From positions 1,200,001 to 1,232,000 of the forward strand of contig NC_014729.1 in NCBI RefSeq assembly GCF_000172995.2: a DNA stretch of 32,000 bases. Direction: 5' to 3'. Below, piece by piece: positions 1 through 28,107 of the stretch (within the stretch, counting starts at the first letter, position 1; every line of letters starts with the position of its first letter). The notes below the pieces were generated by a model, which was not told the DNA's origin, made no database searches, and saw only the letters and a list, made by a program, of their open reading frames with translations. The DNA is from Halogeometricum borinquense DSM 11551 (GTDB lineage: Archaea; Halobacteriota; Halobacteria; Halobacteriales; Haloferacaceae). Position numbers and translations under genes: made by a program.

Positions 1-2438
1 TGCCATGGGATTCGGGACGGGAGAATTTCGTCAACGGATTCTGAAACGGGGTGTACGTCCGTAGCATCGTCGTCTTCGCTGCCGCCCTGGAGGACGAGGA
101 CATCTTCGGCGCGCGTGATGCCGACGTGGAACACGCGACGGGTTTCACGGGCGTCACGCTCGACGAAGTCCTCGGCAAACGCCGCCTCTGCGCCGTCTGA
201 AAGGCTGGTTTCGAGCGCGTCGTAGGTGCGTGAACTCGGTGCCCACTCGCCCGCTGTGACTTGCGGGATGAGGACGACTGGGAAGTCAAGGCCCTTGCTC
301 TTGTGGATAGTCATCACGTTGACCGCGTCGTCGGCGACATCCGGCTGACTCGTCGGGGACGAGCCGCTCTCGTCGAACAGAGAGTCGTAGTGTTCGAGCG
401 AGTCGATGAACTCCGGGGTGAGCGGTGGTTGAACAGCGCTGTCTCCGTACTGTTCGATGACATCCTCCAGCTGGGCGAGATCCCGACGTTCCTGCTCGCT
501 GAGATACCACTCGATATTCGTGACGTCTGTGAGCTCGCGGTACAGATGACTGAGCGACGCTGAATCTCGGATAGCGAGGAGTTCCGTGACGTGTTTACGG
601 GCCTCCGCGACGCGGTCTGGCTCCTCGAACTCGTCGAGTGGCGTCTCGCGGAGCGTGTCCACGAGCGGGTCATCGCCCGCGTTGAGCTTGCGGAGGTCTG
701 TATCGCAGAGCCGGTACCGCATCAGGAGGACGCGATTCCAGCTCACCTCGTCTTCGGGGCGTGCGAGTGCCTTTAGGTAGGCGGTCACGGTGCCGACACC
801 AACGGATTCCGTGGCCAGATCCCCTGCAACCTGGTACGGGATGCCAGCGTCTTCGAATTCCTCGATGACTGGTGTCGCGTGGTCGTTTTTCCGGACGAGT
901 AACGCGATGTCGCCCGGGTCGTACGCCTCATCGAAACTCTCTGCTGCCCCGCTCAGCAAGTTCTGCACGACGGTACGAAGCTGAGAAGCACCGTCCGCAT
1001 CGTCCTCATCCGACAGCTCGACGGTAGCGATGGTGTCCCCATCGTACTCGGGTTCGTCGACGCGCTTCAGTGTCTTGTGACGTTCCCGGTGATCGAGTTT
1101 CTGAATCGCCTCGTTCGCCAAGTCCAGGATCGGCTGCCGAGAGCGGAAATTCTCCTCTAAGGGTTCGTCGGAGAGTGCCGCGAATGCGCGGTCGAGTTCA
1201 TCAGTGATGTTGGCGACGTGCGCGCCGCGCCACTCGTAGATCGCCTGATCGTCGTCACCCACGACGAACAGGTTGTCGTCAGTGACGAGTGACTTGACGA
1301 GGTCGAACTGCAGGCGGTCGGTGTCCTGAAACTCGTCACAGAACACGTAGTCCCACCGAGCAGCGATTTCCTCCCCGACCGGCGACTCCATCAGCTCGGC
1401 CGCCTCTACAACTAGACCGTCGAAGTCGATGAGATTCCGCTCATCGAGTTCCCGCTCGTACGCGGCGTATCCGGCCGTCAGGTCACGGGCCGTCAGACAG
1501 TCCGAGAGGAACGAGTCGAGATGATCCGTGAGCTCAAGATCAAGGTCACCAGGGATTCCTTTCGGCGCACCGTTCGCGTACCCACCGAGTAGATACTTCG
1601 GGAGCTTGTACGCGTTGTCCGGCAGGTCCCGGTCGCCCGCCTCGTGGGCTTCAAACGCCGCTTCTAGCGCATCGCAAAGATCCACCAAGCGGTCGAGGAA
1701 ATCGCGTACACTGGCCTCCATTCCGTCCATCCCCAACACATCACGTTCTTCAACGAGGTCAGCACGGACGTCTGGGAGCGAGTCCAGCACGCTCGACACG
1801 GACCGGCCGCCCAGATGGTCACTGGCAATCGCCTCGACGCGCTCCGAGAGGTCGGCGAGTTCGTAGACACGGTCAGCAGGACCGAGGAACGCGTCGATAT
1901 CGTCGGGCGTGATGCCGCTGCGTTTCATCGATCCGATGAAGTTGAGCAACTTCGATGCGGCCCCTGACGCGTACCCATCAGAGCCGTACACGTTGGGTTT
2001 CACAGACCGGTACTCGATGTCGTCCAGGACATCCAACACGATGGCGTACTTTTCGGCGTCCGTAGCGACCTCGAAGTCTGGGTCGATCCCGGCTTCGTAC
2101 GCGTAATCGGTGAGGATCTCGTTACAGATCGAGTGGTACGTGTACGCGTCGATGTCGTACCCTGCCGTACCGAGTTTCGCGTTGAGCTTCTCCCGCATCG
2201 AGCCTGCAGCGTTGTTCGTGAACGTCAACGTGAGAATCCGATCCGGGGATACGTCCTCCTCGTCGATGAGGTGCTCCACCTTCCGTACCATCGTGAACGT
2301 CTTTCCCGTCCCAGCCCCGGCGAGCACCCGCATTGGGTATGCGTCCGAGTCGATGATCGTTTCTTGCTGGGGCTCCGGTGACACATCTTCCTCCGGAACC
2401 GGGTACCACAACGGGTACTCGTCACTGTCACCGCTCAT
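1..2438 (-). CDS. UvrD/PcrA-family SF1 DNA helicase; its 3' end runs off the window (812 codons visible)
   Basis: It is absent from the ORF track because it has no stop inside the window. My own minus-strand translation from ATG 2438..2436, spot-checked codon by codon at several segments, found no stop down to position 1. No listed minus-strand ORF in 1..2438 uses this frame. SF1 motifs appear in order: AGAGTGKT (Walker A), FCDEFQDT (II), VGDDDQAIYEWRGA (III), ENFRSRQPIL (IV), VMTIHKSKGLDFPVV (V), VGITRAEDVL (VI). Its start overlaps the stop of the upstream gene as ATGA at 2435..2438. Confidence 0.9.
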   Translation of the reverse strand, partial: MSGDSDEYPLWYPVPEEDVSPEPQQETIIDSDAYPMRVLAGAGTGKTFTMVRKVEHLIDEEDVSPDRILTLTFTNNAAGSMREKLNAKLGTAGYDIDAYTYHSICNEILTDYAYEAGIDPDFEVATDAEKYAIVLDVLDDIEYRSVKPNVYGSDGYASGAASKLLNFIGSMKRSGITPDDIDAFLGPADRVYELADLSERVEAIASDHLGGRSVSSVLDSLPDVRADLVEERDVLGMDGMEASVRDFLDRLVDLCDALEAAFEAHEAGDRDLPDNAYKLPKYLLGGYANGAPKGIPGDLDLELTDHLDSFLSDCLTARDLTAGYAAYERELDERNLIDFDGLVVEAAELMESPVGEEIAARWDYVFCDEFQDTDRLQFDLVKSLVTDDNLFVVGDDDQAIYEWRGAHVANITDELDRAFAALSDEPLEENFRSRQPILDLANEAIQKLDHRERHKTLKRVDEPEYDGDTIATVELSDEDDADGASQLRTVVQNLLSGAAESFDEAYDPGDIALLVRKNDHATPVIEEFEDAGIPYQVAGDLATESVGVGTVTAYLKALARPEDEVSWNRVLLMRYRLCDTDLRKLNAGDDPLVDTLRETPLDEFEEPDRVAEARKHVTELLAIRDSASLSHLYRELTDVTNIEWYLSEQERRDLAQLEDVIEQYGDSAVQPPLTPEFIDSLEHYDSLFDESGSSPTSQPDVADDAVNVMTIHKSKGLDFPVVLIPQVTAGEWAPSSRTYDALETSLSDGAEAAFAEDFVERDARETRRVFHVGITRAEDVLVLQGGSEDDDATDVHPVSESVDEILPSRIPW

Positions 2439-3340
2439 CGGCGCACCTCCGTCGCCAAGCGGTCAGCACACATTTCTCGATAGTCACAGTCCGGGCACGC
2501 TTCCTCGCTGATGAGATCGAACGGTTCTGGTCCGTAGGTCTCGCCCGTGATGCCGTCGTGTGCGGCGCGAATGAGCGCCCAGATCGTGTCATAGTGATCT
2601 TCATAGATTTCAGTGGTTTCCCGCCCCCAGCCGCGTGCAGACACATCGTACCCGGTGGGAGTGCTCTCGAACGACGTGCTATTGAGGAGGCCGTAGAAAC
2701 TGAACCGGATCTCCATTCCGTCCTCGTAGAACGGTTCGTTCTTCACGCCCTCGATGTACGCCGCGGTTTGGAACGCGTTCCGCACACGCTTCGGCTCGTG
2801 CGCCTCCCCGTCGAGGTGGTCGCCAAGGTATTCCGCTGTCCCGTCGGAGAGCATTCCGTGTGTTTTCCGTTTGTAGTCGAAGATGTGGAGGCCGTCGTCC
2901 GTTCGGATGACGTTGTCTGCTTTCCCGTGAAGCCCCCGCCCGTCTACCTCGCACTCTACCCAGCACTCGGTGGCGATTGAGCAGCGGGCGTGGTCGATAC
3001 CGACGCCGCCATCGGGAGCGAAGAACGACTCGATGGCAGCGCGATTCTCAGCACGCTGGTACTCTTGATGCGCAGCAGATTCGTAGTCGTCCGGAGTACT
3101 GTGCTCGTCCCATTTCGCATCGAAGATCCGCATCGCCCGCTCGTGAATCACCTCCGGGTCGTCGCCACGGTTGGTCGCCTTACACACGTCCTCGATAGTC
3201 TCGTGGTAGATCGTCCCTTGGTTGAGGTAGAGTTCGGTGCGGTCTGGCGCGTTCACGTCCTGTACGTACCGATAATCGTACAGCCGTGGGCACGTCGCGT
3301 AGTTCGCCAGCCGCGACGGTGAGAGCGACTCCTGGCTCAT
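2435..3340 (-). CDS. Cas4/AddB-type PD-(D/E)XK nuclease with a 4-Cys (putative Fe-S) cluster
   Basis: 301-aa ORF. It has an N-terminal Cys (ATCPRLYDY) and a C-terminal CPDCDYREMC, giving the C...CxxCx5C arrangement typical of Cas4 and AddB nuclease domains. The nuclease core reads GKADNV ... IFDYKRK (D...D/E-x-K) followed by QTAAYI (QxxxY). ATGA overlaps occur at both ends (3337..3340 and 2435..2438). Confidence 0.8.
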   Translation of the reverse strand: MSQESLSPSRLANYATCPRLYDYRYVQDVNAPDRTELYLNQGTIYHETIEDVCKATNRGDDPEVIHERAMRIFDAKWDEHSTPDDYESAAHQEYQRAENRAAIESFFAPDGGVGIDHARCSIATECWVECEVDGRGLHGKADNVIRTDDGLHIFDYKRKTHGMLSDGTAEYLGDHLDGEAHEPKRVRNAFQTAAYIEGVKNEPFYEDGMEIRFSFYGLLNSTSFESTPTGYDVSARGWGRETTEIYEDHYDTIWALIRAAHDGITGETYGPEPFDLISEEACPDCDYREMCADRLATEVRR

Positions 3341-5397
3341 CGTCGCACCTCCCCGTTAGCGAATTCGACACGCGCGCGCAGCGCCTTCCGTAACTCCTCG
3401 CCACGCGCCCCGCTCTTATCGAGCAGGTCCTGAATCTCGCCGAGTTCCGCTTCTACCTCGTCGAGCGACACCGTCACGTCCTGACTGTTCGCGCGGCGCA
3501 CCGCGGCGAGCGCGTCGTCAACCCGCGACAACAGGAAATCCTCCGCCGCTTGCTCACTCGTGATGCGTGGATCGTCGGATTCAGTGACCCACGGCAGGGT
3601 GTCGTACGCGTCTGTGAGGAACCGCGATGCCTGCGCACGCTCTTCCAGTGCGGTGTCCTCGTACTCGTAGAGACAACAGTACAGGTGCTCGTCAGCAGCG
3701 CCAGCCCCAATCGCCAGGCGTCGCCGGGCGTGCTCCGTGTGATACCGAGCGAACGGCCGACTCGACGCTGTGGACGTCGTCGGGAACGTCGCATCCACGT
3801 CCGGCTCGTCGAGATCCGTGACACCAGGGTAGTCCACCATCGATGCGACCCGCTCGGTCGGGAACAATCGAGTCAGGAACGGGTCACCAGGGTACTCACT
3901 ATCGACGAGATTCACGAGAAACACCGCGCGGAACGACTCGTTCTTGATCGCCTGCAGGTGGTCCACGCGAACCCCGCCGTCAAGGTTCGTCGCACTCGTC
4001 TGGTTTTGTTGCGGTGCGTACTCGTGGGCGCGTTCGAGCATCTCCTCGAAGGACTCCCACCCCGCATCCACAAACTCAGTCTCTTCGAGAAACGCGGCCA
4101 TCCGGAACGCCCGCTTGACATTTCCGAACTGCGCCCGTGCGTTCAGCGGGGTCGCGCGCTCCGCAATCCGCTCTTTTAAGCCTGCGTCTGTCGCCCACCA
4201 GTGAATCCCATCTTCGAGGCTGTCTATCTCCCGGACGCGGTCCAAGCGCTCCGTATCAAGATCCGGGCCGTGTTCAGGCAGCTCGTCCTTGTCGTCGGCA
4301 GCGAGATACCGCACGGCAGCGAGAAGTTCCCGGATCGCAGGATCGTCTCCGAAACCAGTGACTGTTGTCGATTCCGTCGGGATGCCGGTACGCTCGAACG
4401 CCTCAATGACATCCGTAACCGACCTCCCACTTTGTTTCGTGGCGACAGCGATGTCGTCGTAGTTCCAATCCGGCTGCGCGACGAGTTCCTCAATCTCGTT
4501 TGCAATATCGGCGAGTTGTTCGTCACTGGAGTCTGCAGCGAGAACGGACACCGATCCCGTGTCTGGGTCTGCCGGGACCGTTTCTTTGGCAAAATACGTT
4601 GCTGTGGCAGCTGGTCGCGTTGACGGCGTCTCTGACACCCCACGGCGAGCCTCGCTGAACGTGACATAGTCCGTAACGGGCCCCGTTTCGACCCACGTTC
4701 GGCGCACACTCGCATTCTTTTCGGCGATACAGACGAGCTCACAGTCCCCTGCGAGCGCGTCGAGATACGCGCGGTCGAGCGGGAAGAACTCCTCAAACTC
4801 GACTGTGAGCACTGCCTCGAAATCGACGACGTCGTCACGGGCATCCCCGGTGAGGACATCGAGTGCTTCCGAGATGAGTTGGCCGCGTTCCATGTGGCCG
4901 TACTCGGCCAGCCACTCATGGAACGCGTCGAGCGCAGCCGCGATGTCACGGAGTTCCGGGGTTTTCTCAGGCGTGACCGTCTGCCAGGAGATCGTTCCCA
5001 TCACGGCGTCCACGTCCTCGATGAACGACGGCTGTTCAGAGGCCCGTTGAAGGTACTCCGTTTCCCACTCGTAGTCTTCGAGGAATCGGTGAAGGAGTTC
5101 TCGCCGCAGCGCGTCGGAGAGAATGACGCGGTCATCGGTCTGGTTGAGGACGTCGGTCGCGTGCACCACGAGCGACGTCACGTACGGCGTCGCCGCACCC
5201 GACAGTTCCTCACCTAAGGTCTCCCGGAACGTGTCCGTACTCGTCGGCGCACCCGTGACGACGAGCACATCCTCAGAATCGTGCTCGTCGAGGAGCGTTC
5301 GGTATTCCTCCCGCGCTGTCCGTTCGACGTTTTCGCCCCCGAACGGTGCCGTGACTAACGCCCCGTCGAATCGCCGGTGAGATGAGTGATCAGACAT
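3337..5397 (-). CDS. SF1-helicase-like protein with degenerate motifs (AddB-like inactivated helicase subunit, tentative)
   Basis: 686-aa acidic ORF, tightly packed in the operon. There is no GK[ST] P-loop; the N-terminus reads LVTAPFGGENV. Degenerate counterparts of SF1 motifs occur in the right order: TVEFEEFFPLD (where DExQD would be), VRVDHLQAIKNESFRAVFLVNL (resembles motif V), RRRLAIGAGAADEHLY (resembles motif VI). The CDS call is solid. The fold assignment is pattern-level inference only. Confidence 0.6.
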   Translation of the reverse strand: MSDHSSHRRFDGALVTAPFGGENVERTAREEYRTLLDEHDSEDVLVVTGAPTSTDTFRETLGEELSGAATPYVTSLVVHATDVLNQTDDRVILSDALRRELLHRFLEDYEWETEYLQRASEQPSFIEDVDAVMGTISWQTVTPEKTPELRDIAAALDAFHEWLAEYGHMERGQLISEALDVLTGDARDDVVDFEAVLTVEFEEFFPLDRAYLDALAGDCELVCIAEKNASVRRTWVETGPVTDYVTFSEARRGVSETPSTRPAATATYFAKETVPADPDTGSVSVLAADSSDEQLADIANEIEELVAQPDWNYDDIAVATKQSGRSVTDVIEAFERTGIPTESTTVTGFGDDPAIRELLAAVRYLAADDKDELPEHGPDLDTERLDRVREIDSLEDGIHWWATDAGLKERIAERATPLNARAQFGNVKRAFRMAAFLEETEFVDAGWESFEEMLERAHEYAPQQNQTSATNLDGGVRVDHLQAIKNESFRAVFLVNLVDSEYPGDPFLTRLFPTERVASMVDYPGVTDLDEPDVDATFPTTSTASSRPFARYHTEHARRRLAIGAGAADEHLYCCLYEYEDTALEERAQASRFLTDAYDTLPWVTESDDPRITSEQAAEDFLLSRVDDALAAVRRANSQDVTVSLDEVEAELGEIQDLLDKSGARGEELRKALRARVEFANGEVRR

Positions 5398-5402
5398 GGC
5401 TG

Positions 5403-7523
5403 TTATCCTCGGACGAGCCGCGTGACCCGAGACAGAACACCGGTGTTGTCAGCGGCTCTTTCAGTGTCACGTCGTGCATCTTCGATGATACTGGGCTCAT
5501 CTATCCAATTCTTGAACCTGTTTGCGCTTTCAAACTGGACTGCCGGCCCGTAAATACTGGCCCGGATGTGGGCCGGCGTAGCTTTCTGGAACTCCCAGCA
5601 CTGCTGCTGATCCAGATTCGCTGAGAAATCAGCGATAACACGCCCGTCGTCCTTGAAATCGAGTTCACACAGCCCGTCGGACAGCGCGCTGATCCACTTC
5701 CGTCGTCCCGGGTCGTGTTCCTGCTCGGCGGGTTTCTCCAGCGGCACGTACTCCGGCGGTTCCTTCTCGGCGTACGCGTACAGCTCCGCGAACACGTCCC
5801 GAGCATCCGCCAGCCGATCCGACTGGTCTGGCAGCGAGATATCTCGCTGCAAAAACAGGTGGGCGAACCAGGGGAACAGATTACAGCTGTCCGCCTGCCC
5901 CGCGATCTGCGCGGCAGCTTCCCGTTCGTCCTTCTCCAGTTCGGAGAAATTGACGTTGAAATCCAGCGTCTTCATCCGGGTCCGAAGCTCGGATTTCGGT
6001 TTCGTCGAGTCGTTCGAGGAGAAGATGAACGTCGGCATCTGGATGGAGCCGTCCCACTTCCCCTCCCAATACGATTTGATGATGTCCCGGTCGATCTTCG
6101 ACTTCGCCACGTCGTCAACGATGTACGGGAAAACAGTGTCCGACGCACGAGCACGCTCGATGTTGTTTTTGACGAAGTCGTCGCCGGTCGTAACCTCCTG
6201 CACGTACCCGTTCGAGATGAGCCGCGCCCCGAACCGCAGGAACATACCCTTTCCACTGTCGTTGTCGCCGTGAAGAAACAGGAACGGGAGGTCCTTGTCC
6301 AGTTCCGCAGATTCGTATTCGGCGTAATGATGGGCGCAGTAGTTGGCGAACGGAGCCCAGCAGAAGTAGATAACACCCTCGTAGAAGTGTGCCCGTGTTT
6401 CCTTCGTCGTTCGCGTTTCACCGAACTCGCCGACAGTTTCGACGTACTGCTCGATCAAATCTAGCGCATCAGCGACTTCCTGCGGATCGTCCGGGAGAGG
6501 TGCCGTTAATTCGAGGACGGAGTCGTCAACCCGCAGCCCGACCGTGTTCTCGTCCTTGTCGACGTTGAGGTCGGGGTATCCGGTGAAGGTCTCTTTGTAC
6601 CGTGCGATACCGGCCGGTGTCGCTACGATTTCACCGTCGTTGATACGGATGTTATTGGCGGACAGCGTATCATCCAGATTCGAGATGGCGTCTTCGAGAC
6701 CCTGCGGGGAGAGGCGTACACGTTTGTCCGGACTGATCTCTGTTGGGTCAGTATCCGTATCTTCGGCGGCGAATACCGCCTTCTCTGCTTCTTCGGCGTC
6801 TGTGACGACGTTGTACCTGTTGACTTGGTCGTCGTCAACCGCTTCGTCGAGCCGAGCGTTCAGCTCGGCGACCGGGTCGTCACTGAACTCGTCCCCGCCC
6901 AGCCAGATGTCGTAGATCTTCGCCTCTTCTTCTGCTGTTTCGGCGTCCTCAATCTCCTCGGTGAGGTCCTCCATGAACGGCGTCGCGTAGTCCTTGTGAA
7001 ACGCGTAGAGCCGTTCGAACCACTCGTCGACGGGCGTGTCCCCGTCGGTACGCCAGGCCATGTTGACGTTAGTTTGTTTGCTCCCCTGCCAGGCTTGCTT
7101 GGAGAGGTTCGCCGACCCACAAATGAGTGTGCGAGACCCGTCCTGATTCTCGATGATGTAGAGCTTCGTGTGGAGGAGGACGCGCGCGGAATCGACAGTA
7201 TGGATGCGGAGATCACCGTCTCGCCGAAGCGACTCCAGTTGCGCGGCGATTTTCTTCGCGTTGTTCGTGTTCTTCAGCGACCGCCGGTAGTCGTCGTGTT
7301 GGTTGTCTCCGACGATGACTTCCAGCGAGTCCACTGCGAGGTCCCGGTTCTGAAACATCTTGTAGATGAACGCCGGGGACTGACTGTACGTGACGCAGTA
7401 GACGTGCTGGGCGTCACCGAAGTAGTTCACGAAACTGTCCCATGATTTGTCGGCAGCCATCTCCAGGTCAGCGGTGCTGCCGTCATCGAACTCGACTGTT
7501 GCTTCGAATTCTGTCTTGGTCAT
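5403..7523 (-). CDS. Fusion protein: N-terminal HKD (phospholipase D-family) nuclease and C-terminal SF3-helicase-like P-loop NTPase
   Basis: 706-aa ORF. A single HKD motif, LHTKLYIIENQDGSRTLICGSANLS, starts at H118 (codon 7170..7172, checked). The P-loop FLFLHGDNDSGKGMF lies at 6246..6269 (checked). Walker B is FPYIVDDV and the SF3-type motif C is TFIFSSND (6012..6029, checked). An acidic linker separates the two domains. Confidence 0.75.
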   Translation of the reverse strand: MTKTEFEATVEFDDGSTADLEMAADKSWDSFVNYFGDAQHVYCVTYSQSPAFIYKMFQNRDLAVDSLEVIVGDNQHDDYRRSLKNTNNAKKIAAQLESLRRDGDLRIHTVDSARVLLHTKLYIIENQDGSRTLICGSANLSKQAWQGSKQTNVNMAWRTDGDTPVDEWFERLYAFHKDYATPFMEDLTEEIEDAETAEEEAKIYDIWLGGDEFSDDPVAELNARLDEAVDDDQVNRYNVVTDAEEAEKAVFAAEDTDTDPTEISPDKRVRLSPQGLEDAISNLDDTLSANNIRINDGEIVATPAGIARYKETFTGYPDLNVDKDENTVGLRVDDSVLELTAPLPDDPQEVADALDLIEQYVETVGEFGETRTTKETRAHFYEGVIYFCWAPFANYCAHHYAEYESAELDKDLPFLFLHGDNDSGKGMFLRFGARLISNGYVQEVTTGDDFVKNNIERARASDTVFPYIVDDVAKSKIDRDIIKSYWEGKWDGSIQMPTFIFSSNDSTKPKSELRTRMKTLDFNVNFSELEKDEREAAAQIAGQADSCNLFPWFAHLFLQRDISLPDQSDRLADARDVFAELYAYAEKEPPEYVPLEKPAEQEHDPGRRKWISALSDGLCELDFKDDGRVIADFSANLDQQQCWEFQKATPAHIRASIYGPAVQFESANRFKNWIDEPSIIEDARRDTERAADNTGVLSRVTRLVRG

Positions 7524-7586
7524 GCGAGGGTTACCGGTGTGGTGATGAGTGCGTGAGTGGTTGCGTGAGGCTGTACTGGCGCATGG

Positions 7587-15300: not shown

Positions 15301-17329
15301 GCCGACCTCGTTCGACGCCGTCCGCCCAACGGCCGCGTGGAGTCTTCCACGCAGCGACCGTGAGCGCTTCAGCCTCGACGTGAACGGGCTACAGCCCTTG
15401 CTACCGTTCGTAGACGGGGACTTCCCAACAAGAGAAAGTGAAACGCCCGTCAGCTTCGAAGAACTCGCCGACACACTCGGTATCGGGGTCCGGCTAGAGC
15501 AAGGCACGTTCTCACCACAGGACGCCGAACGCGTGATCAGTCGTGTCGGGGAGTTACTCGCGTGGACCGATGACGACCTCGCTCAGTACAGCAGTGCTGT
15601 CGAACTACTCTACACACGCGTCGCTGAACTCCTCCCGAGACTAACGCATGGCAACCAGATCAGTGGGGAGTGGGACCCCGAACAAAGTGGGCTCGCGGAC
15701 GCACTTGTCCTCTGCCGGGTTGATGATAAGTACTCCCTCAAGCGCGCGGGTGACACCTACTTCGTCCGGTCACGAAGCAGTCGTGACCGCTACGGAAACC
15801 TCGGCGTTCCACTCCTCGCTATGTTCAAATCAGAAGCCGTCAGTCTCGGCGAATACTGCGGCGCAACCGACTTGCGAGCCGCTGTCGAGAAACAACCCGG
15901 ATACGGCGATGAACGCCCTCTCCCGACGTCTGTCTCTGGCTTCGAAATCGACACCACGTGGCTCCAGACCGTCCTTGCCGCGCTCGTTCTCCGACTCCGA
16001 ACAAACCGACCATCATCCGCACTCGTCGACCAAGACACGACCCGAACCAAGTCATTCTTCGAGAACATCGTGTTCGTCACCGACCTCGATCTCAACATCA
16101 CGCTCACCGACGGCAGCTGGAACCGAAATCTCGACCCGAAACCGCAACCGTACCACATTGAACGCGACGGCGACACGATCACCACGATCCTCATCGACGC
16201 GACACTCAACCGAGAGGCGTTCGTCGACGCACTCACCGGCGCATTCACCGACCGGCTCGATGTCCCACAGTACTACGAAGCCGTCAACAACCTCATTGAC
16301 CACGCGTTCGGGAACGAAACGCCAGCAATCGCGTTACGCGAACGACTCCGAACCGTCGGCAGCGAAGTTCCGAACGGCCAAATCGAAGTGACTCGGAAAG
16401 CACTCTTCGAAAGTGACCATGAGGACCCACCGAAAGACGACGGCGTGACAGACCACCCACCCGACCCTAAACCAGACAATGGTGGCGCATTCGATTCCAC
16501 TACGAACACACAAACCGCAGCAGCTAACGGCGGATCGGGATCATCCACCGGCACGGCTGGAACCAGCGCACACTCCTCGCGCATCCCCAGTATCGACGCC
16601 GTCACTCGAATCGGCGACCGACGAATCGCCGAATCACTCCGGAACGCCGATGTCTCCACAAACCCACCCGATAACGGTGGTCGTCAGGACTTGGGGAACG
16701 AGCAATCCACATCTAGTAGTCATATCGGTGGGGGTGGAGCTGCGTCACAAGAGTACCGTGACGAGATAGACGCGTTCGGTATGGCAATTACGCTTGATGC
16801 AGAACGAACGCGGCTCGCGGACGCCGACGAACCCAACCCGGAATCGAAAGTCTTCGACGTTCACACACCAGAAGAATACCTAAAGCACCGTGAACACTCC
16901 GAGCTCCTCGAATCCGCGATTCACCGGTTCGCAGACCAACGCGGCCTATCCGCCGCAGAAAACCCGCTCGACCGCGACTGGCCCGGATTCGACGTCCTAA
17001 CGATCCGGACTGACGACAACGGCGACGCAGTGATCGACCGTTGCATCGAGCTGAAAACCTCCGGCCTGAACACACGCAAGCCATCCCTCTCCTGGAACGA
17101 ATGGAAAGCCGCAGGCGGCCCGCTCAGCAAGCATTACTACCTCTACGTCGCCCGGAACATCCGACTCGGCAACAGTGGCGACGCAGAACTCCTCGAAATC
17201 CCACAACCATTCGACCGGCTACGCAACCGGCAACGCGAAACACGCGAACGGAATGTTCAGGTAGACCTCCGCAGCTTCGACTTCGACGACGACCCAATCA
17301 TCGAACGCCCCATTGAGTGGGAGGAATAA
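12305..17329 (+). CDS. Giant GHKL ATPase (sacsin/NO VEIN-type Bergerat fold) with a C-terminal DUF3883 (NOV_C) PD-(D/E)XK-like domain
   Basis: 1674-aa ORF. The N-box is FELLQNAVDE (12452..12475, checked), G1 is LVANNGAAFSFEDL and G2 is IGHKGRGFTSVLGVTDNPSVYS. A low-complexity linker covers about 16418..16747. The C-terminal domain (16748..17326) reads WPGFDVLT...VIDRCIELKTSG (E1582 codon 17048..17050, checked)...LSWNEWKAAG...HYYLYVARN. Together these give the D...E-x-K and YyLYvV pattern of DUF3883. The middle stretch of about 1200 aa has no motif I can recognise. Confidence 0.8.
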   Translation: MCMNGSGPASISDIQCRHVDTYESNPDRIEADAGTERQDRADYEGRFVFELLQNAVDEMDDTGEPRVRFELTEDSLLVANNGAAFSFEDLYALTLTTRTTKAGETTIGHKGRGFTSVLGVTDNPSVYSENVQAQFNRKTTADLLKGNDKISAERDDALAAEQVPLLCLPHETTTPPRVRALLNDGFTTVFKLPLRDPARHRESIHTKLEGLDANTVALLPQLQEIEISSLGQDWEWEIARHDMTGCDATLIELTTDTADGPEETRTDWFCLFEQTDLDQKQISDRADLTQPEVDAMGELSVGIAFSVTPGDSPPSLRPKGWKLKPVYGETHNQPPYLHVFLPTKERSPIPALVTGTFQSDTSRRNLTLNYDDSRGYDGQFNALLFMAVGELLADSVISFVEQSATSEGDFLTTLDPSLGQGRDWSFTKGTVEGCLFDAIKTRLTSVEFLPSARANQRVAIDDITVPPTSAQLSDLGTDFVSLLQSGDSQADDRPHVPSAELSTHQHAQTLVAYGASQYDASSVPEALAAVSVDPPLRIVDEREFGRTPPDDDEPCRLTVDPVLVYLVRLRKTLESDEDRSAFDDACRRHDVFPVEIKTDQEGTKHAIRGSNEAGTIFMPPEGDITADALPTLEFLPRDLYHGTNADRAAPLREDALPANFDADVQTIWDINDYLFSQVFDTAISPHLPGPNSPNADPSILASGGVLRTIREMTDVQSPENDRSPESPLLYQSAKKPYSALAQLPVPTQPTEDGTVEWHPAHRVYFSSDWQTTLNRPEDAYIEPFLNAVAAQTDSERFDPKFLASPSWFTTDKDEERVETLKAWAAFFSWLGVFEHLRPLPLFAPGEQQTYRQTQGLSQPSNSTITASEDLQRDGVYSVDHRYTGLTDVEWQSYRDHLVDAVTSEIPDPDEQYLFQVNSLEYASEILSAAKQSGEVGSRLLRHLTRWWDHGLSKRRHATVAEFTNERWRGSNVSYVFTHDEQSALGWNLWVWQLRQSSWVPTSFDAVRPTAAWSLPRSDRERFSLDVNGLQPLLPFVDGDFPTRESETPVSFEELADTLGIGVRLEQGTFSPQDAERVISRVGELLAWTDDDLAQYSSAVELLYTRVAELLPRLTHGNQISGEWDPEQSGLADALVLCRVDDKYSLKRAGDTYFVRSRSSRDRYGNLGVPLLAMFKSEAVSLGEYCGATDLRAAVEKQPGYGDERPLPTSVSGFEIDTTWLQTVLAALVLRLRTNRPSSALVDQDTTRTKSFFENIVFVTDLDLNITLTDGSWNRNLDPKPQPYHIERDGDTITTILIDATLNREAFVDALTGAFTDRLDVPQYYEAVNNLIDHAFGNETPAIALRERLRTVGSEVPNGQIEVTRKALFESDHEDPPKDDGVTDHPPDPKPDNGGAFDSTTNTQTAAANGGSGSSTGTAGTSAHSSRIPSIDAVTRIGDRRIAESLRNADVSTNPPDNGGRQDLGNEQSTSSSHIGGGGAASQEYRDEIDAFGMAITLDAERTRLADADEPNPESKVFDVHTPEEYLKHREHSELLESAIHRFADQRGLSAAENPLDRDWPGFDVLTIRTDDNGDAVIDRCIELKTSGLNTRKPSLSWNEWKAAGGPLSKHYYLYVARNIRLGNSGDAELLEIPQPFDRLRNRQRETRERNVQVDLRSFDFDDDPIIERPIEWEE

Positions 17330-17411: not shown

Positions 17412-18644
17412 ATGGCAGCTACACTCACTGAACCCACCGTTCTCGCTGCCGCGAAGGACACTCTCTACCCTGATCTCGACACGAACACAGACCATTACGC
17501 TGTCACAGAAACGCAGTTCACGAAATCCTCTTGGGGTGGATGGGAGATTCCTGACGATCTCCGTCGTCGCCTCGCGCCGTACAACACCATTCGACTCACG
17601 GACGGGGAACCTGATCTCCTCGGCGTTGGGATGCCTGCTCTCGAAGTCCTGAACGCCGATGCCACAACAACACCGGTCACGGTAATCGAAGCGAAAGGCC
17701 ACAATAGCGATCCGAGTGCTGCTGATGTCCGAACCGGCATCAACCAGGCGCACGGTCACTTATCCGAAGTCAACATCGGGTACGTCGCTGCCCCCATCCA
17801 AAGCATCACCGACCAGGCACGGGCACTAGCTCGGGACCTCAACATCGGCGTCATCGGCGTCGAAAGCCCGCACGACGCAATGCTCATCGAACCAGCTCGC
17901 GTCACCGGTGTCGGCGACTTCTCCACCACTATCGACGCGATCCGGTTCCAAGCCACAACGCACCAACTCACCGAAGGCAGCTTCCCAGTCAATCACCCGA
18001 AGAACTACCTCGGCTACGCACTCGCCCTCGCGGCAGATGGCGGCACCCCTGACGTTTACTCCGAGCACGTAATCAACAGCGTATCAGGTGGCCGTCGCGG
18101 CGCAATCCTTCTCGGTCTCGTTGACAATCAGCCTCACGGAGAGACACTCACGCATCTCGGTGCAGAAGTCGTCCGCTTCGCCCGCAGCCACCACGGGACT
18201 GTCGATGCTGCACTCGACGAATTCGCCTCGTGGAAAGGCCGTTCAACACCGTTCACCGACCTTGCTCCTCGGTGGGCGCAACTCGCCCGCTCAGTCGCCA
18301 TCCAGTACGAGCCAACGCAACTCATCATCGAAGCACTCGAACGCCTCCACCAACACGGCATCAAACCCGCCACCATCGACACCGTCGTCCGAGAAGCCTG
18401 CCGCATCAACCAACCACTCGCCGTGGAAGTATTCTTCACCCAATCTAGGCGTGAAGACGTGCTCACCGCCGATGGCGACATCGACGAATCAGTGCTTACG
18501 GATCCGACTGTGTACAAGTCCGGCATTCACTTCCAGTTCAAGTACCACCTCCGACATATTGGACTGCTCACGGCAGGCGGAACCGATGACAAAGACGAGG
18601 TCCTATCGAACAATTGGGAGCTAAATCAAGCGGTCGGACTCTGA
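17412..18644 (+). CDS. Hypothetical protein with an N-terminal PD-(D/E)XK (Hjc/restriction-endonuclease-like) motif
   Basis: 410-aa ORF. TDGEPD68LLGVG ... PVTVIE93AK95GHN followed by QAHGH fits a D-(x)n-E-x-K nuclease core. The C-terminal half is helical and unassigned. A TATA-like taatgata lies at 17381..17388. Confidence 0.55.
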   Translation: MAATLTEPTVLAAAKDTLYPDLDTNTDHYAVTETQFTKSSWGGWEIPDDLRRRLAPYNTIRLTDGEPDLLGVGMPALEVLNADATTTPVTVIEAKGHNSDPSAADVRTGINQAHGHLSEVNIGYVAAPIQSITDQARALARDLNIGVIGVESPHDAMLIEPARVTGVGDFSTTIDAIRFQATTHQLTEGSFPVNHPKNYLGYALALAADGGTPDVYSEHVINSVSGGRRGAILLGLVDNQPHGETLTHLGAEVVRFARSHHGTVDAALDEFASWKGRSTPFTDLAPRWAQLARSVAIQYEPTQLIIEALERLHQHGIKPATIDTVVREACRINQPLAVEVFFTQSRREDVLTADGDIDESVLTDPTVYKSGIHFQFKYHLRHIGLLTAGGTDDKDEVLSNNWELNQAVGL

Positions 18645-18649
18645 TTGGC

Positions 18650-19996
18650 TCACTCTTCGCCTGACTTACTGGCCTCTGTGATGAGGTTCCCGAACCGTCG
18701 GAGCAGGACTTCTGCATTCTCCTTAGTTGTTGTCGGTTGGTACTGCTCCTCCTCGTACTCTGCCAGTTGGATGCTTGGGTGAGCCAACAGGTTGAGCGAC
18801 TGTTCAATGACGTGCTGGTCCGGAACCCGCTCCTCATTGTACATGCCTTTCAAAATCAAACGGAGCCGGTCAGCGGTTCCTTCCTCTGGGTCTGCTCGTT
18901 GAAGCGCTTCCATCACGGCAAGCAAATCCTCAGTCCCACCAAGACGAGTCCGTAGTTCATCATCGATCTGATCAAGCCGGTCATCTTGGAATGCACCCTG
19001 CTCAGTAAGATATGTTGAGAGTGCTTCCGGCGGAATCCCGTAGGTATCTCGCCGTTCTAAGAGCGCCTTGAGGTGATCGGTTGCAAGGAGGACGATTCCT
19101 TGCCGGTCCGCATCTTCAATTGCTGCCGGGGTGAAGCCAGGTGCAACTACAATCGCTTGGTCGGCCGAATGTCGCTCTTTATGCCCTTGGATTCGCGTTG
19201 CATCTGGCGATGCCAGCGTTCCACTGCTTCGTGCCTTCACTTCAACGACCGCATGAATCGGTGCGGTAACCTCGACATCCGTATCGTCCCCACCTTCTAT
19301 CCACCGTGCCTCAAACCCCAACCGAGAGAACGCCTTAGCGACAAGCTCTTCCAACTCCTCATACTGGTCACCATCCCGACTCGCCGCAACGATACGCTCT
19401 CCCAGACCGAGTTCCTGTTCTTCTTCAGACTCCTCCTGCAACGAGTCCTCATCGAACTCATGAACCCGGACACCACTCCCCGTTAACTCATTAACTGCGG
19501 TTTCAACGGACTCGTACGCATCCTCTACATCTCGGATACGCGCATCGGACACCCGACTGAATCCCTGCGGGATGTAATTATCTTGGTACCCAACAAGCTC
19601 GTTGAACGACTGGACATCCACATCAATCTCCGCCACACCGGTCAAGAACACCAAATACCGCCACGGACTTTCAGGGTCCCACGGATTCCCCTCAGTACGC
19701 CAGAGATGCTCAGCCAGGTCAAGATCATCCCGTGTTCGAACAACAGTGGCCTGCGCAATGTACCGCCCATCCCGGTAAATTAACGCGATGTCACCACCCT
19801 CCACGAACTGCCACTTCGAATCAACTGACGTCCCCCAAAGATGCACCTTCTCCGACTCCGAATCAGTAACGGCCTCAACTTCGGCATCAGAAAGATGTTC
19901 CGCAAACTCCGCTGGGTCATGCCCTCCCTTCACAGACTGCAGATAATCCTGATAGGCATCCTCACGTCCAGCTGTAATAATGGCTATCCCCGTCAT
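18650..19996 (-). CDS. Mrr-type restriction endonuclease domain fused to an N-terminal PUA/EVE-like domain (candidate modification-dependent nuclease)
   Basis: 448-aa ORF. The central region reads ELVAKAFSRLGFEARWIEGGDDTDVEVTAPIHAVVEVKARSS ... QAIVVAPGFTPAAIEDADRQGIVLL, which gives the Mrr_cat D...E-x-K pattern. The N-terminal VHLWGTSVDSKWQFVEGGDIALIYRDGRYIAQATV resembles PUA-like (EVE/ASCH) beta-barrels. That part of the call is weak. Confidence 0.6.
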   Translation of the reverse strand: MTGIAIITAGREDAYQDYLQSVKGGHDPAEFAEHLSDAEVEAVTDSESEKVHLWGTSVDSKWQFVEGGDIALIYRDGRYIAQATVVRTRDDLDLAEHLWRTEGNPWDPESPWRYLVFLTGVAEIDVDVQSFNELVGYQDNYIPQGFSRVSDARIRDVEDAYESVETAVNELTGSGVRVHEFDEDSLQEESEEEQELGLGERIVAASRDGDQYEELEELVAKAFSRLGFEARWIEGGDDTDVEVTAPIHAVVEVKARSSGTLASPDATRIQGHKERHSADQAIVVAPGFTPAAIEDADRQGIVLLATDHLKALLERRDTYGIPPEALSTYLTEQGAFQDDRLDQIDDELRTRLGGTEDLLAVMEALQRADPEEGTADRLRLILKGMYNEERVPDQHVIEQSLNLLAHPSIQLAEYEEEQYQPTTTKENAEVLLRRFGNLITEASKSGEE

Positions 19997-20188
19997 TCGT
20001 AAGTAAATGAATAACTACTCGGTCAGGAGAAAAATCATAGGGGTAAACAAGGATTCTATTGGTCACTCTGGGGTCTGGATTCTGGTACGTATGCCGGAAT
20101 TGTCCATCAATGAAGCATCGAATTCAGGACTAGCGTCCACAACAAACATCCCTCTGTCCCACGCGCCTTACGCCTGAGGTCTGTTAAG

Positions 20189-20956
20189 ATGGGCACACTT
20201 GTCATCGACATTGAAACCGCCAGCCCGTTCGAAGAGCCGCCCGACAACTCGAACGACACCCAGTACTTCGAACTCTTCGCTGTCAGCCTCGCGTACGCTG
20301 ACGACCTGAACGACACACCAGAAACCGAAGTGTTGTTCCGGAGCGGCGACTGGGACGACCAGTATACGATTGACCTCTACGAGCGCCTACTCGACTGGTG
20401 TGATGACCGCAGCGTAGATCGTCTCCTCACGTATAACGGCACCTGGTTCGACGGCACGCACTTGCTGAACTGGGCCTGCAACATCGACGATAGTGCTAAC
20501 CGAGACTTCTTGACACGCACAGAGGCCTTGTTCGAGAACCACGTTGATGTCGCGCTCGCAGCTGCCGATGAGTACGAAGCCGAGCTATGGGACGACCAGC
20601 ACATCCTTCCTGACTGGAAGGTCTACGACCTTGCTGGGATCGACAACGACAGCGTCTGGTACGACGACTACGACTTCCCCGACAACTATCTCTCCGGAAT
20701 AGATGGGAAAGCTGTCCAAGGCAAGCACATCGGGCAAGTCCTCGGCGACAAATACGTTCAAAACGTCGAAGCCGGCATTGAACATACCAGCGTCCACCGC
20801 GAACTCACACAACTCCTCAAAGACTACTGCCTTAGCACGTCGCGGACCTCATCAACCTTTACACCACCCTCGGAGGTCCCAATCTCGATGATACCTACCG
20901 CCGGCCCGCCACCGACATCGTCTGACGCGTATTCCTCCCATCATCCCAATACTTAG
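20189..20956 (+). CDS. DEDDy 3'-5' exonuclease related to the PolB exonuclease domain; the C-terminus appears frameshifted
   Basis: 255-aa ORF. ExoI is LVIDIETAS and ExoII is LLTYNGTWFDGTHLL. After DYCLS (20822..20836) the listed frame becomes low-complexity (TSRTSSTFTPPSEV...). The frame reached by inserting 1 nt after 20836 reads D-VADLINLYTTLGGPNLDDTYRRPATDIV and stops at 20923..20925. That insertion completes a Y-x3-D ExoIII motif. Confidence 0.65.
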   Translation: MGTLVIDIETASPFEEPPDNSNDTQYFELFAVSLAYADDLNDTPETEVLFRSGDWDDQYTIDLYERLLDWCDDRSVDRLLTYNGTWFDGTHLLNWACNIDDSANRDFLTRTEALFENHVDVALAAADEYEAELWDDQHILPDWKVYDLAGIDNDSVWYDDYDFPDNYLSGIDGKAVQGKHIGQVLGDKYVQNVEAGIEHTSVHRELTQLLKDYCLSTSRTSSTFTPPSEVPISMIPTAGPPPTSSDAYSSHHPNT

Positions 20957-20988
20957 GATAACGGGATAGTCCTGAACCGAGGATGCGC

Positions 20989-23900
20989 TCAGTCTGATTT
21001 CTCAATCGGGTCGGGCGCTGCTGAAATCCGATCAAGGAGTCTATCTGCGGCCGTTGCTGCCGTGGATGGTTCGAGTCCGTGCTGACAGTACGTGTCAACC
21101 ATCGTTGACCGAATTTGTTCGTCCGGTCGCGTTGGGCGCGGATCAAGATAGTTCTCTTGCCGGAAGTACTCCTGGAGTTCCTCGATTTTATCTTGGCGGA
21201 AGTGGCTGACATCCGGCAGTGCATCGAGGATCTCTTCTGGATCTCCGTCGACTCTGTCTGCCAGCTCGCTTACCTTGTCGATGAACGTATTGCTGACGGC
21301 ACCACTGGCTTCCAAGACACTGCGGTCAACTGCCTTCCCGCGCCCAACTGTGTACGCCTCAACGAACGATTCTAATGCCGCACCGTGTCGGCGGACTTGC
21401 TTCCGGGCCGACTGCGACAGGAGGCCATCAACGGCACCGATCTCCAGCAACGACCGGAGATGCCCCCAGCGCTCGATTCCTGCACACCGCAGTCGGTACA
21501 AGACTTCCGGCTCCTCAGTCACGTACCAGAGCGGTGCCGACGCCGCTCCTTGTCGTGGGTCGAACGTTGGCACGCCTAGTCGCTCACGGTACGACCAGTG
21601 ATCGTCGCCGTCCGGGGCAGGGACGTTGATCGAACCGGCCGTCTCAACTGCCGGCGGCTCCGCGACTGGGTCGTGCCCGTCGCTCGCCGTCAATTGCTGG
21701 AGACTGTACTCAACATCCGACTCTTCGAGACGAGTTTCCCACCGTGCGCGTTCGTCGTGCCGGGCCGTGAAGTAGAATACTTGCCTCCCTTCCCGGGCCA
21801 GGTCAATCACGGTGTCAAGAACCGTTTCAGCGCGTTGGTCATCGAACGGTGCCAGCGTCTCGTCAAGCAACAACGGGGGCGCAGTCTCTTGCTCTCTGTG
21901 TTCGACGAAAGCAACCCGAACCGCGAGCAGGACCTGCACTCGCGTCCCACTGGACAAATCGTTCAGGTCAACGCGCCGCTGTTCTCCCGTATCGAACGCC
22001 CTGAACGTCCCGTCATCCAGTCTGAGCTCAAACTGTCCGTCAGTAATCCGCCGCAAGAGATCATCCGCCCGCTGAAACACCGGCTCCTGATTGCTGGAAA
22101 CCGTCTCCGCCTCGACGAACTCAAGGAGTGTATCCGTGACCGCGTCGGCCACGTCCGCTTCGAGCGCTTCCTCAAGACCTCGCAAGGCTTCACCTCGTTC
22201 TTGAACAGCGTCAGCAATCTCCGTCGACGCCTTCGCATCCTCGATCTCCTTCTCCAGCGTCGTTTTCTCCTGTAACAACTCGTCGTACTGGTTCGCAATC
22301 TCCCGTTTTTCGTCTAACTCTCGCTCTAAGTCGTCTCTGTCTCGCTCTTCGATCTCTTCCTCGTAAGCATCGTGTTCACGAAGATCTGAACGGCGATTCT
22401 CAAGTGTAGTCTCCGCAGTACCTTTCGCCTCAACGGCTGCTTCGTACTCCGAGTATTGCTCACACAGTGTTGCAAGCCGCTCCCGGTCGCCAGGCTCCAA
22501 GCCACGCTCGGTGAATAATTCCTCTCGGTCGGCCCTGTACCGGTCGAGTTCCTCGTGGGCCACAGCGACACTCCCATCGACCTCTTCGAGTCGCTGCGTC
22601 GCATTCTCGTAGTCACGCTGTCGCTGTTCGAGACTCTCAACAGCAGCCGTCGCATCCGCACTCGTTTCGACCGTGTAGGAGTACGCATCAGTCGTGTAGG
22701 GCTCAATCGTCGCGCAGAACTGCTCCCGATACGTCTTGACCTGATCGTTGGCTTCCTGTAGTGCCGCCTGTTTCCCGACAACAGTCTCGTCAGCAGCCTG
22801 CCAGCGCTCAACACGCTCGACCGTTACTGCCAGTTCAATGTCGTCGTTGACCTCGGTATCGAACCGATTCTGAAGACGATCACGCGCCGTCTCCAGTTCA
22901 TCTCTGATGTCATCGATGTCAAACTGTGCACGGAGCTCATCCCGCTTCTGCGCCTCCTGCTCGTCCACTTCGATGACCCGCAGTCGCTCACGAAGATCAG
23001 CTACCCGGTCCCTGACTCCGTCAGGTTCCCACGAATCTGGCTCTGGAAGCCCAGTCTGCCGGAATGTCTCCGCATGGGTCGCCCTGGCAGTGTTGTCCGT
23101 GCCAGTATCGTCACTCCTCGCGGAGAGCACCGCGTAGCCAGCGAGAGCGAGTCCGAAGAGTGTCAGCAGGCCACCAGCCGGATTGACTGTGAGCGCGATC
23201 ACGACGCCTGACAGCGCCGTCAAGATCCCTGCTGTGATGGCCGCTACTACAGGGCCTCGACTACCCGTGTCGTCAGGAGCTTGTTCTGGCGGGGCTGCGA
23301 GCCAGTTCTCAAGCGCATTCCGCCCGCTTTCGAGCGTTCCACGATCCGCTGATTCCTTCGACTCCCCGGCGAGCCACTCATCGATAGCAGCCTCGACCTG
23401 TCCCTTCCCGTCGACTTCCGCTACCTTCGAAACGAACGAACGAAGCTCAGCAAGATCGTCCGTGTCGACCTCGCGGAGGGTCTCACCGTCAAGGTCCAGG
23501 GGAATCTTCTCCCGTACCTCACTGCGCTTGGCTTCTGCATCAGCTACTTCACGCTGCAAACGATCACGATTATCTTCAGCATCATCGAGGTCATCTCGGT
23601 ACCCTCGAAGCGTCTGCAACACCCCATCGGCAACCCCGTCCTCAGGTAGTTCCGTGCCAGCCAGTTTGTCCGCGGCCTCACGGTATTTCACCGCGGCCTC
23701 CTGCTCAACGCGTTTCTGTTGCGCTATCTGCTCGTCAAGATCGTCGAGCTGGTCCAGTTCATCACCATCGAACGACGCCAACTCATCCGGGAACGATGTT
23801 ACCTCATCGACCCGCTGGTCATAGGCATCCTGCGCCTCCCGGTACTGAATCGCCGTCTCAAGCAGATCAACGCGCTCACTCGCATCGGCGGCGGCCGCGA

Positions 23901-25828: not shown

Positions 25829-25846
25829 CTAACAATCAAATAAGAA

Positions 25847-25855
25847 GATATTAAC
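25847..25855 (-). promoter_or_regulatory. TATA-like element upstream of the metallophosphoesterase/SMC-like operon
   Basis: The minus strand reads ttaatat (reverse complement of 25848..25854), 20-26 nt upstream of ATG 25828. Confidence 0.35.
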
Positions 25856-25963
25856 ATAAGCCCGGCGGTCGATCTGAGAGCAGTCGAGGAATTTCGGCAA
25901 ACGCCATCGTCTTGACATCGATCCACTTCGTGCGACCAAGCTTCCGTTCAGCTACAAATTGAC

Positions 25964-26976: not shown

Positions 26977-27038
26977 GAGGGTCTATCTCGACATTTGATG
27001 GCTTTTTGAATAATTTACCGCTACTAAATATGTGGCTC

Positions 27039-28033: not shown

Positions 28034-28107
28034 ACAGTGACAGAGCCGGATGATGATCCTTTCCCCAGGAGAGATTAACTCCGAGGCTGGCCGAGAGTTG
28101 TCGAAGG

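Follow-up and report, generated by a model that had tools for sequence, protein, structure and literature searches.

The closest described relative of the locus considered here is the APAP defence system of Natrinema pellirubrum, in which a long-A prokaryotic Argonaute (pAgo) is accompanied by AgaP, a partner of the phospholipase D (PLD) family (Cheng et al., 2024, mLife, PMC11442185). When NpAgaP and its pAgo were expressed in Haloarcula hispanica, AgaP alone was toxic through residues H105 and K107, and this toxicity was suppressed by pAgo (PMC11442185). Plasmid restriction requires the AgaP site and not the pAgo site, whereas immunity to the single-stranded DNA (ssDNA) virus HHPV-2 requires the pAgo site and is enhanced by AgaP (PMC11442185). 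That study treated AgaP purely as an Argonaute-restrained PLD nuclease. A stretch of 32,000 nucleotides from the haloarchaeon Halogeometricum borinquense DSM 11551 (NC_014729.1, positions 1,200,001 to 1,232,000; hereafter the window) carries an AgaP-family gene at 5403..7523 on the minus strand, whose product consists of a PLD nuclease, an acidic linker, a small middle domain, an ATPase domain resembling those of superfamily 3 (SF3) helicases, and a C-terminal alpha/beta domain. The reading favoured here, which we hold to be moderately probable, is that this protein works together with pAgo as an ATP-engaged ring nuclease.

The gene is an intact open reading frame (ORF) of 706 amino acids (aa) with an ATG start, and is the second of a tight minus-strand operon consisting of pAgo, agaP, a 686-aa ORF, and a 301-aa ORF; all operon coordinates below refer to the minus strand. 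It starts 63 bp after the pAgo stop codon, a spacer inside the published range of 31-64 bp (PMC11442185), and is followed after 5 bp by the next gene on the same strand. Aligned by BLASTP, the window protein and NpAgaP are 32% identical over residues 10-678, that is, over their full length (E 6e-104), and the alignment takes in the NpAgaP segments GESNGGKGT, FPVVVDD, FAFISN, and RNRAK. H118 and K120 of the window protein correspond to H105 and K107 of NpAgaP, and the GSxN motif aligns with G157-S158-N160. A supplementary figure of the APAP study names Halosimplex salinum YPL4 (locus L011 of our set), Halorussus marinus LYG-36 (L003), Haloferax profundi SB29 (L009), and Natrialba asiatica (L013), of which the first three encode orthologues 94-99% identical to the window protein (PMC11442185). 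Because of this full-length homology and the loci named in that work, the window gene can be assigned by sequence to the AgaP family with near certainty, and the link between pAgo and a PLD protein was already known.

One published hallmark of AgaP, a 'split' HxK(x)~49GSxN motif, does not apply to the window protein, in which GSxN lies 16 residues past K120. In NpAgaP the motif is split by an acidic insertion of 34 residues that is absent from the window clade. The aligned sequences indicate that the hallmark is an insertion of one clade; since the catalytic residues themselves are conserved, this is variation within the family rather than a reason for exclusion from it. NpAgaP itself was recovered from plasmid pNATPE02 as a 717-aa ORF right after the Piwi gene, and it too carries the C-terminal ATPase domain; the mutagenesis primers in the supplement of the APAP study encode the same PLD motifs (PMC11442185). 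On this plasmid (L028, 4989..7142) the agaP ORF is intact, and the PLSDB gene table for the RefSeq record breaks the region up into three short hypothetical proteins, of which two are read from the other strand. The part encoding the ATPase domain of NpAgaP is annotated as a separate 'hypothetical protein'.

The PLD (HKD) nuclease domain spans residues 67-171 (7011..7325) and is recognized by Pfam PLDc_2 (E 1.8e-7; 31.5 bits against a gathering cut-off of 27), by Foldseek, and by the family profile; weaker Pfam matches of the N-terminal part are to Tyr-DNA_phospho and to the NgoFVII PLD domain. In the AlphaFold model of the full-length protein (pLDDT 77.6), the best PDB neighbours of the N-terminal part are SauUSI, the NgoAVII R-protein, phosphatidylserine synthase, and Nuc, and the family profile matches SauUSI (9.6e-9) and NgoAVII (3.5e-6), as well as BfiI, Zucchini, and Nuc. 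The motif reads LLH118-T-K120-LYIIE125-NQDGSRTLIC-G136-S-A-N139-LS, with the catalytic dyad H118-T-K120 at 7164..7172 and the GSxN part, G136-S-A-N139, at 7107..7118. Compared with the superfamily motif HxK(x)4D(x)6GSxN, the arrangement H118-x-K120-(x)4-E125-(x)10-G136-S-x-N139 substitutes Glu for Asp and lengthens the spacer. Each chain contains a single HKD motif, and by likeness to Nuc and BfiI a complete active site would need two chains. These two PLD nucleases require no cofactor. The nuclease domain is followed by an acidic, partly disordered linker at residues 186-270 (6714..6968), in which 30 Asp or Glu residues stand against 7 Lys or Arg residues in 85 positions and pLDDT falls below 50 at residues 255-265. 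A composition of about 60% G+C with 20% acidic residues, together with all the relatives, indicates a haloarchaeal origin.

The SF3-like (D5/P4-type) AAA+ ATPase domain, at residues 345-560 (5844..6491), begins with two long helices and is supported by AlphaFold, Foldseek, BFVD, and a profile of the ATPase core. Walker A (G419-DNDS-G424-K425-G426, 6246..6269) has Gly in place of the usual Ser/Thr, and is followed by Walker B (Y467-IV-D470-D471, 6111..6125) and by motif C, or sensor 1 (F499-IFSS-N504, 6012..6029). R516 (5976..5978), 12 residues past N504, is a candidate arginine finger because its placement after motif C is that seen in SF3 helicases. K425, D470-D471, N504, and R516 fall within 92 residues, in line with the motif spacing of SF3 helicases (about 100 residues). 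The remaining C-terminal region, which is helical and alpha/beta (residues 561-706, 5406..5843), is confidently modelled and lies inside the family profile in most members.

Residues 340-706 (367 residues), modelled by AlphaFold from a 95-sequence alignment, give a pLDDT of 95.1 and a pTM of 0.91. Foldseek places the vaccinia D5 helicase first among PDB structures (probability 0.97), followed by MCM subunits, the helicase region of phage NrS-1, monkeypox virus (MPXV) E5, the African swine fever virus (ASFV) primase-polymerase, and SV40 LTag. Against BFVD there are 25 matches at E <= 1e-3, the best at 7.5e-7, and the named ones are nearly all primase-helicases of phages or giant viruses (SF3 helicase, NrS-1 polymerase-like helicase, DUF927, VirE, P4-type primase). 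The full-length model also retrieves the SaPI5 primase-helicase and NrS-1. When PDB sequences were searched with the ATPase-core profile, the SCCmec Cch helicase (1.1e-3) and the SaPI5 primase-helicase (1.7e-3) were matched from Walker A to the conserved Arg, and papillomavirus E1 was reached at E 0.08. Taken together, the C-terminal half very likely folds like the D5/P4-type SF3 helicases of the AAA+ class. The original prediction, made from the DNA alone, had proposed a single-HKD PLD nuclease joined by an acidic linker to an SF3-like P-loop NTPase; both halves and the linker hold, and the PLD, Walker A, Walker B, and motif C sequences that it quoted all lie in the 706-aa ORF at the positions it gave.

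The same architecture recurs well beyond this locus. A profile of residues 340-706 was searched against 1.84 billion cluster representatives and retrieved 313 at E <= 1e-3, 107 of them at E <= 1e-30. Most of the representatives listed are 640-720 aa long, with the ATPase domain at about 300-650 and the same order of domains. Since most listed members share size and domain order, the PLD-ATPase fusion is the normal architecture of a sizeable family. An alignment of 54 sequences, reaching down to 16% identity, has invariant residues at H118, K120, N139, E382, G419, G424, K425, P466, N504, R516, R575, and P590, with S137 and D470 at least 90% conserved; in the 95-sequence alignment both D470 and D471 reach at least 90% conservation, and no family alignment shows any change at N504 or R516. 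The invariant columns of the PLD and ATPase domains imply that both catalytic centres are under selection across the family. Motifs arising by chance were considered and are ruled out by this family-wide invariance.

A precomputed match to Pfam PF27394 (Aq_aa27) is present in all 20 close homologues, one of which is 96% identical, and it also covers the region after the PLD domain in all distant members looked up. The name Aq_aa27, taken from an Aquifex reading frame that is itself uncharacterised, suggests that the family has been assigned no function. Among bacteria, distant members are known from Dehalococcoidia and Coprothermobacter, and in the six of their neighbourhoods that were readable no Piwi gene is found nearby. 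These members stand beside a Type ISP restriction-modification (RM) gene and an SF1-helicase/PLD gene, beside BREX PglZ and BrxL, beside HepT/MNT toxin-antitoxin pairs, or alone. A scan of 2.9 million viral contigs with the haloarchaeal alignment returned no relative. By sequence and neighbourhood, AgaP is the Argonaute-linked branch of a broader family of PLD-ATPases of defence islands. In one Dehalococcoidia metagenome-assembled genome (L021, 3496..11527), the Aq_aa27 member lies after a ParE toxin gene, flanked by genes for a Type ISP (MmeI-like) methyltransferase-nuclease and for a 963-aa SF1-helicase/PLD fusion; this is possibly a three-gene defence module with two different PLD nucleases.

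Within haloarchaea the association with Argonaute is close. A scan of one genome per species gave 18 loci, and pAgo lies directly upstream of agaP in 17 of them, as the original prediction would have it. Fourteen loci, from more than 10 genera, encode a protein 88-99% identical to that of the window; one of these is ended by a contig end and one (88%) has internal deletions. All 14 keep the module of pAgo, AgaP, and a divergently oriented AAA_14 gene, and 13 of the 14 keep the genes for the 686-aa protein and the Cas4-like nuclease, the remaining one (Haloferax profundi, L009) being truncated within agaP by the end of its contig. In L001-L012, L017, and L018 the DNA matches the window at 84-94% identity from the window start to about 12205, and in most genomes the match stops within a few bases of 12205-12215, with different cargo beyond. 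Such high identity across genera implies recent horizontal spread. The block 1..12209 has the look of a mobile module that spread recently and ends at a junction with variable cargo; its left border lies outside the window, and the window holds no tRNA genes that would mark the borders of an integrated element. Among the near-identical loci AgaP is conserved better than any other protein of the operon, at 94-99% amino-acid identity against 84-94% for pAgo; the reverse might have been expected of an accessory effector. In Halocatena pleomorpha (L018, 8181..8963), agaP lacks segments matching 5487-5809 and 6527-7289 of the window while pAgo and the genes for the 686-aa and Cas4-like proteins are intact, and it is probably a pseudogene beside a live pAgo.

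At three loci with an AgaP of 48% identity, pAgo (34% identical) is found upstream together with AAA_14 (25% identity), and neither the 686-aa nor the Cas4-like gene is present. In Haloplanus litoreus (L016, 7923..15792), an AgaP homologue of about 48% identity occurs without pAgo, with codirectional Mre11-like, Rad50/SbcC-like, and NurA genes downstream of it. This locus has no HerA and is preceded by a Csa3/HFX_2341-like regulator and GmrSD; the PLD-ATPase occupies the usual slot of the HerA helicase. Homologues of agaP are also found on 20 haloarchaeal plasmids.

A mechanism can be proposed from these features. The SF3-like domain would assemble AgaP into a ring, most simply a hexamer, in which PLD domains pair across subunits to give complete active sites. 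The complex would be restrained by pAgo until a guide-directed encounter with invader DNA, whereupon ATP binding or hydrolysis by the SF3-like domain would load the enzyme on DNA and move or unwind it. With such a motor, a PLD nuclease that needs no metal could act processively on double-stranded plasmid DNA, a substrate poorly cut by pAgo on its own, and the products of the two downstream genes, a Walker-less AddB/UvrD-like protein and a Cas4-like nuclease, may process DNA ends, possibly into guides. That AgaP truly translocates on or unwinds DNA we put at slightly less than an even chance. A wider generalization is offered tentatively, as possible but on the doubtful side: that the AgaP (Aq_aa27) family as a whole comprises ring-forming SF3-type motor nucleases. 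In APAP systems the motor would add the unwinding or translocation that mesophilic long-A Argonautes lack, so that a guide-directed encounter would lead to the ATP-driven destruction of double-stranded invader DNA; outside Argonaute operons, in bacteria and archaea, the protein would be a stand-alone defence nuclease. On this wider reading, a type of helicase that replicates mobile elements would have been recruited for defence.

In scans with Pfam, NCBIfam, PHROGs, and PADLOC, the PLD part alone was matched and the C-terminal half went unrecognised; a phmmer search of PDB sequences with the window protein returned nothing, and a profile of a 10-sequence C-terminal alignment returned only a chance match to thioredoxin. 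Several observations weigh against an SF3 motor. None of the 54 family members matches a Pfam SF3 family at E <= 0.01 (e.g., DUF5906/PF19263, Pox_D5/PF03288, RNA_helicase/PF00910). With hhalign, a single-sequence template of phage P4 alpha brought the motifs into register at a probability of 3.5%, and a 17-sequence template that lacks depth (homologues at least 76% identical) gave 21%, over Walker A only. These sequence results do not establish that the domain belongs to a curated SF3 family. The E-values of the Foldseek matches in PDB are weak, at about 1e-2, and MCM, RFC, and RuvB are also among the matches. The stretch between Walker B and motif C is predicted to be helical, as opposed to the beta-hairpin typical of SF3 pore loops.

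The Walker A motif is a further point of this kind. The Ser/Thr of Walker A normally binds Mg2+. In the window clade the motif is GKGM, or GKGQ in one member, and no hydroxyl residue follows the Lys. This substitution was not pointed out in the original prediction. In the haloarchaeal clades the Lys is followed by G, and in most other members by S/T. The canonical GK[ST] is present in 58 of the 95 aligned members and in most bacterial ones; the NpAgaP clade has GKGT. Going by the sequence, hydrolysis may be slow, or a nucleotide-binding switch may have taken its place, and the ATP-driven translocating nuclease suggested in the original prediction is weakened a little by this.

The most durable alternative builds on this point. 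The C-terminal domain would be a nucleotide-dependent switch or assembly module rather than a translocase; ATP would be bound but hydrolysed hardly or not at all, and its binding would set oligomerisation and so the pairing of PLD half-sites, pAgo would act on the switch, and cutting would be local. Such a module would accord with the GKG that replaces GK[ST] in all haloarchaeal pAgo-linked clades, with a Walker B to motif C interval in which no beta-hairpin pore loop is predicted, with the weak Pfam matches of a few family members to AAA_16, STAND, and ATPase_2, with the presence of the non-helicase AAA+ proteins RFC, DnaA, and Cdc6 among the matches, and with the published need for pAgo to restrain AgaP (PMC11442185). 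However, the best structural neighbours are consistently replicative SF3 helicases, most family members have the canonical GK[ST], and the residues that serve hydrolysis and not just binding, namely the two Asp of Walker B, the Asn of sensor 1, and the candidate Arg finger, are invariant even in the GKG clades. We regard a switch as unlikely, though it is the rival to be taken most seriously.

A second alternative holds that the ATPase site of the window clade has decayed, leaving a scaffold (e.g., a surface for binding pAgo or DNA) in what would be an ATP-independent PLD nuclease. The hydroxyl residue is indeed lost at both +1 and +2 after the Lys (GKGM/GKGQ), both in the window clade and in that of the 48%-identical proteins, and PLD nucleases such as Nuc and BfiI work without a cofactor. 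Against this, K425, D470, D471, N504, and R516 are invariant in the clade at overall identities of 46-96% to the window protein, AgaP is conserved best among the proteins of its operon, and a decayed site would be expected to drift. The sequences indicate that the ATPase site of the window clade is clearly maintained, and its decay is improbable. The last alternative takes the gene for a replication helicase left over from a mobile element, travelling with pAgo and playing no part in defence. SF3 helicases are typical of plasmids and viruses, homologues occur on plasmids, and the block, being 84-94% DNA-identical across more than 10 haloarchaeal genera, is horizontally mobile. There is also the precedent of a pAgo-associated PrimPol with a PriCT-DUF3987 helicase, a separate protein encoded 2-8 genes from a long-B pAgo and interpreted as an integrated element's replication module (Fu et al., 2025, PMC11724360). 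This reading is very improbable and has largely been refuted by published genetics already, the nuclease site of the homologue being required for plasmid restriction (PMC11442185). It is also opposed by a protein with a nuclease at its N-terminus and no primase, origin-binding, or Rep domain, by the tight operon with pAgo, by the scan of 2.9 million viral contigs, which returned no relative, and by the RM, BREX, and toxin-antitoxin neighbourhoods of distant members.

An ATP-engaged ring nuclease thus remains the favoured reading of AgaP, and its novelty must be set against what is published. The original prediction took this architecture to be undescribed, which does not stand as worded, because AgaP of an experimentally tested APAP system is a homologue (PMC11442185) and the C-terminal region is Pfam PF27394. 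What survives of that claim concerns the nature of the domain. The APAP study makes no mention of a C-terminal domain, ATPase, Walker motif, or P-loop (PMC11442185); literature searches on pAgo with PLD and SF3, on APAP, and on phospholipase D with superfamily 3 helicase returned no description of the ATPase domain; and a PLD-SF3 fusion is not mentioned by Makarova (2009). The SF3-like ATPase nature of the AgaP C-terminal region is therefore absent from the searchable literature, though the gene, the system, and the Pfam family are known. Of the two outcomes that the original prediction had named as fatal to it, a match of the P-loop domain to a non-helicase NTPase family with no DNA-related role and a fusion confined to this genome and unlinked to pAgo elsewhere, neither was found: the nearest folds are those of SF3 helicases, and the fusion belongs to a large family that is linked to pAgo in other genomes.

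A conserved AAA+ ATPase of viral-helicase type makes up more than half of AgaP. This domain bears on how double-stranded plasmid DNA is handed over by an active Argonaute, on why AgaP is toxic alone, and on why plasmid immunity and ssDNA-virus immunity depend on separate catalytic centres. It also suggests a source of duplex opening, a step that is limiting for mesophilic Argonautes as genome tools. What is gained is an annotation and a testable hypothesis of mechanism, and not a new kind of system.

The pAgo gene (7587..10274) encodes 895 aa with an N-terminal OB-fold-like extension, and is recognized by Pfam Piwi (E 4.1e-21) and PADLOC (pAgo, 1091 bits). The tetrad D677, E713, D747, and D872, in GLDV, GE, HRDG, and YADK motifs, aligns with that of CpAgo, which together with CbAgo is the nearest solved structure; from these matches the protein is a long-A pAgo with a catalytically intact DEDX site. 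Residues 1-82 (10032..10274) show a weak OB-fold match to replication factor A (NCBIfam PRK07217, E 0.0017). A similar repA-like domain has reportedly been described in NgAgo. The 686-aa UvrD/AddB-like protein (3337..5397) is recognized only weakly, by UvrD_C, ADDB_N, addB_Gpos, and the AddB structure 3u44_B, and has neither a GK[ST] Walker A (GGEN stands where GSGKT is expected) nor a DExx pattern. It was considered as the active helicase of the operon and ruled out for the lack of both motifs. Its stop codon is overlapped by the start of the gene for the 301-aa Cas4-like PD-(D/E)XK nuclease (2435..3340; Pfam PDDEXK_1, E 1.6e-22; Cas4 models of NCBIfam and PADLOC), which is of the Fe-S type and has a C-terminal Cys cluster. 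By sequence likeness these two proteins resemble an AddB that is split and lacks a motor. The AgaP ATPase is the only candidate for a motor in the operon, should there be one.

Beside the operon, on the plus strand, is the conserved divergent gene for a 558-aa AAA_14/DUF4143 ATPase (10533..12209; Pfam AAA_14 and DUF4143, PADLOC PDC-S01). Beyond the junction, 12305..17329 (+) encodes a 1674-aa protein with a Sacsin domain (Pfam) that PADLOC matches to TmtA of Tiamat (226 bits); it is found at 94-95% identity in three related loci only, and a 29%-identical TmtA-like gene occupies the same junction in three others. The stretch 17412..29790 resembles a defence island, with minus-strand genes for an Mrr_cat nuclease (18650..19996), a 1238-aa Rad50/SbcC-like ATPase (20989..24705) overlapping that for a Metallophos protein (24542..25828), an HNH protein (27041..28033), and a second Metallophos protein (28408..29790).

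One of the known systems compared with AgaP involves DUF3987, a D5-like domain. The pAgo-associated PrimPol with this helicase resembles the present case as a P-loop helicase of mobile-element type near pAgo, and is a precedent for such a motor, but has no nuclease fusion (PMC11724360). The restriction enzymes SauUSI, NgoAVII (R and N proteins), and BfiI share the single-HKD PLD domain, and the first two, which are the best PDB matches for the N-terminal part, also share the coupling of a PLD nuclease to an NTPase against foreign DNA, BfiI being an ATP-independent relative; all differ in having neither an SF3/AAA+ domain nor an Argonaute partner. In SauUSI the motor is an SF2 helicase, and in NgoAVII the NTPase is a separate subunit.

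The D5/P4-type SF3 helicases (vaccinia D5, MPXV E5, the C-terminal region of NrS-1, the SaPI5 primase-helicase, and P4 alpha) resemble the other half of the protein, with Walker A, Walker B, and motif C inside about 85 residues, an invariant Asn with an Arg 12 residues on, and long helices ahead of the core. Most AgaP-family members also have a Walker A of the form GxxxNGK[ST], which is typical of this type of helicase. AgaP differs from them in its fusion to a nuclease, in the absence of a primase or origin-binding domain, and, in the window clade, in the loss of the Walker A Ser/Thr. NpAgaP of the APAP system is the nearest counterpart overall: its gene likewise comes immediately behind that of a long-A pAgo with an intact DEDX tetrad, separated by a short spacer, and the protein shares the HxK and GSxN residues and the C-terminal ATPase motifs. 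The window protein differs from it in having GKGM rather than GKGT in Walker A, and the window operon adds the AddB/UvrD-like and Cas4-like genes to the pair of pAgo and AgaP.

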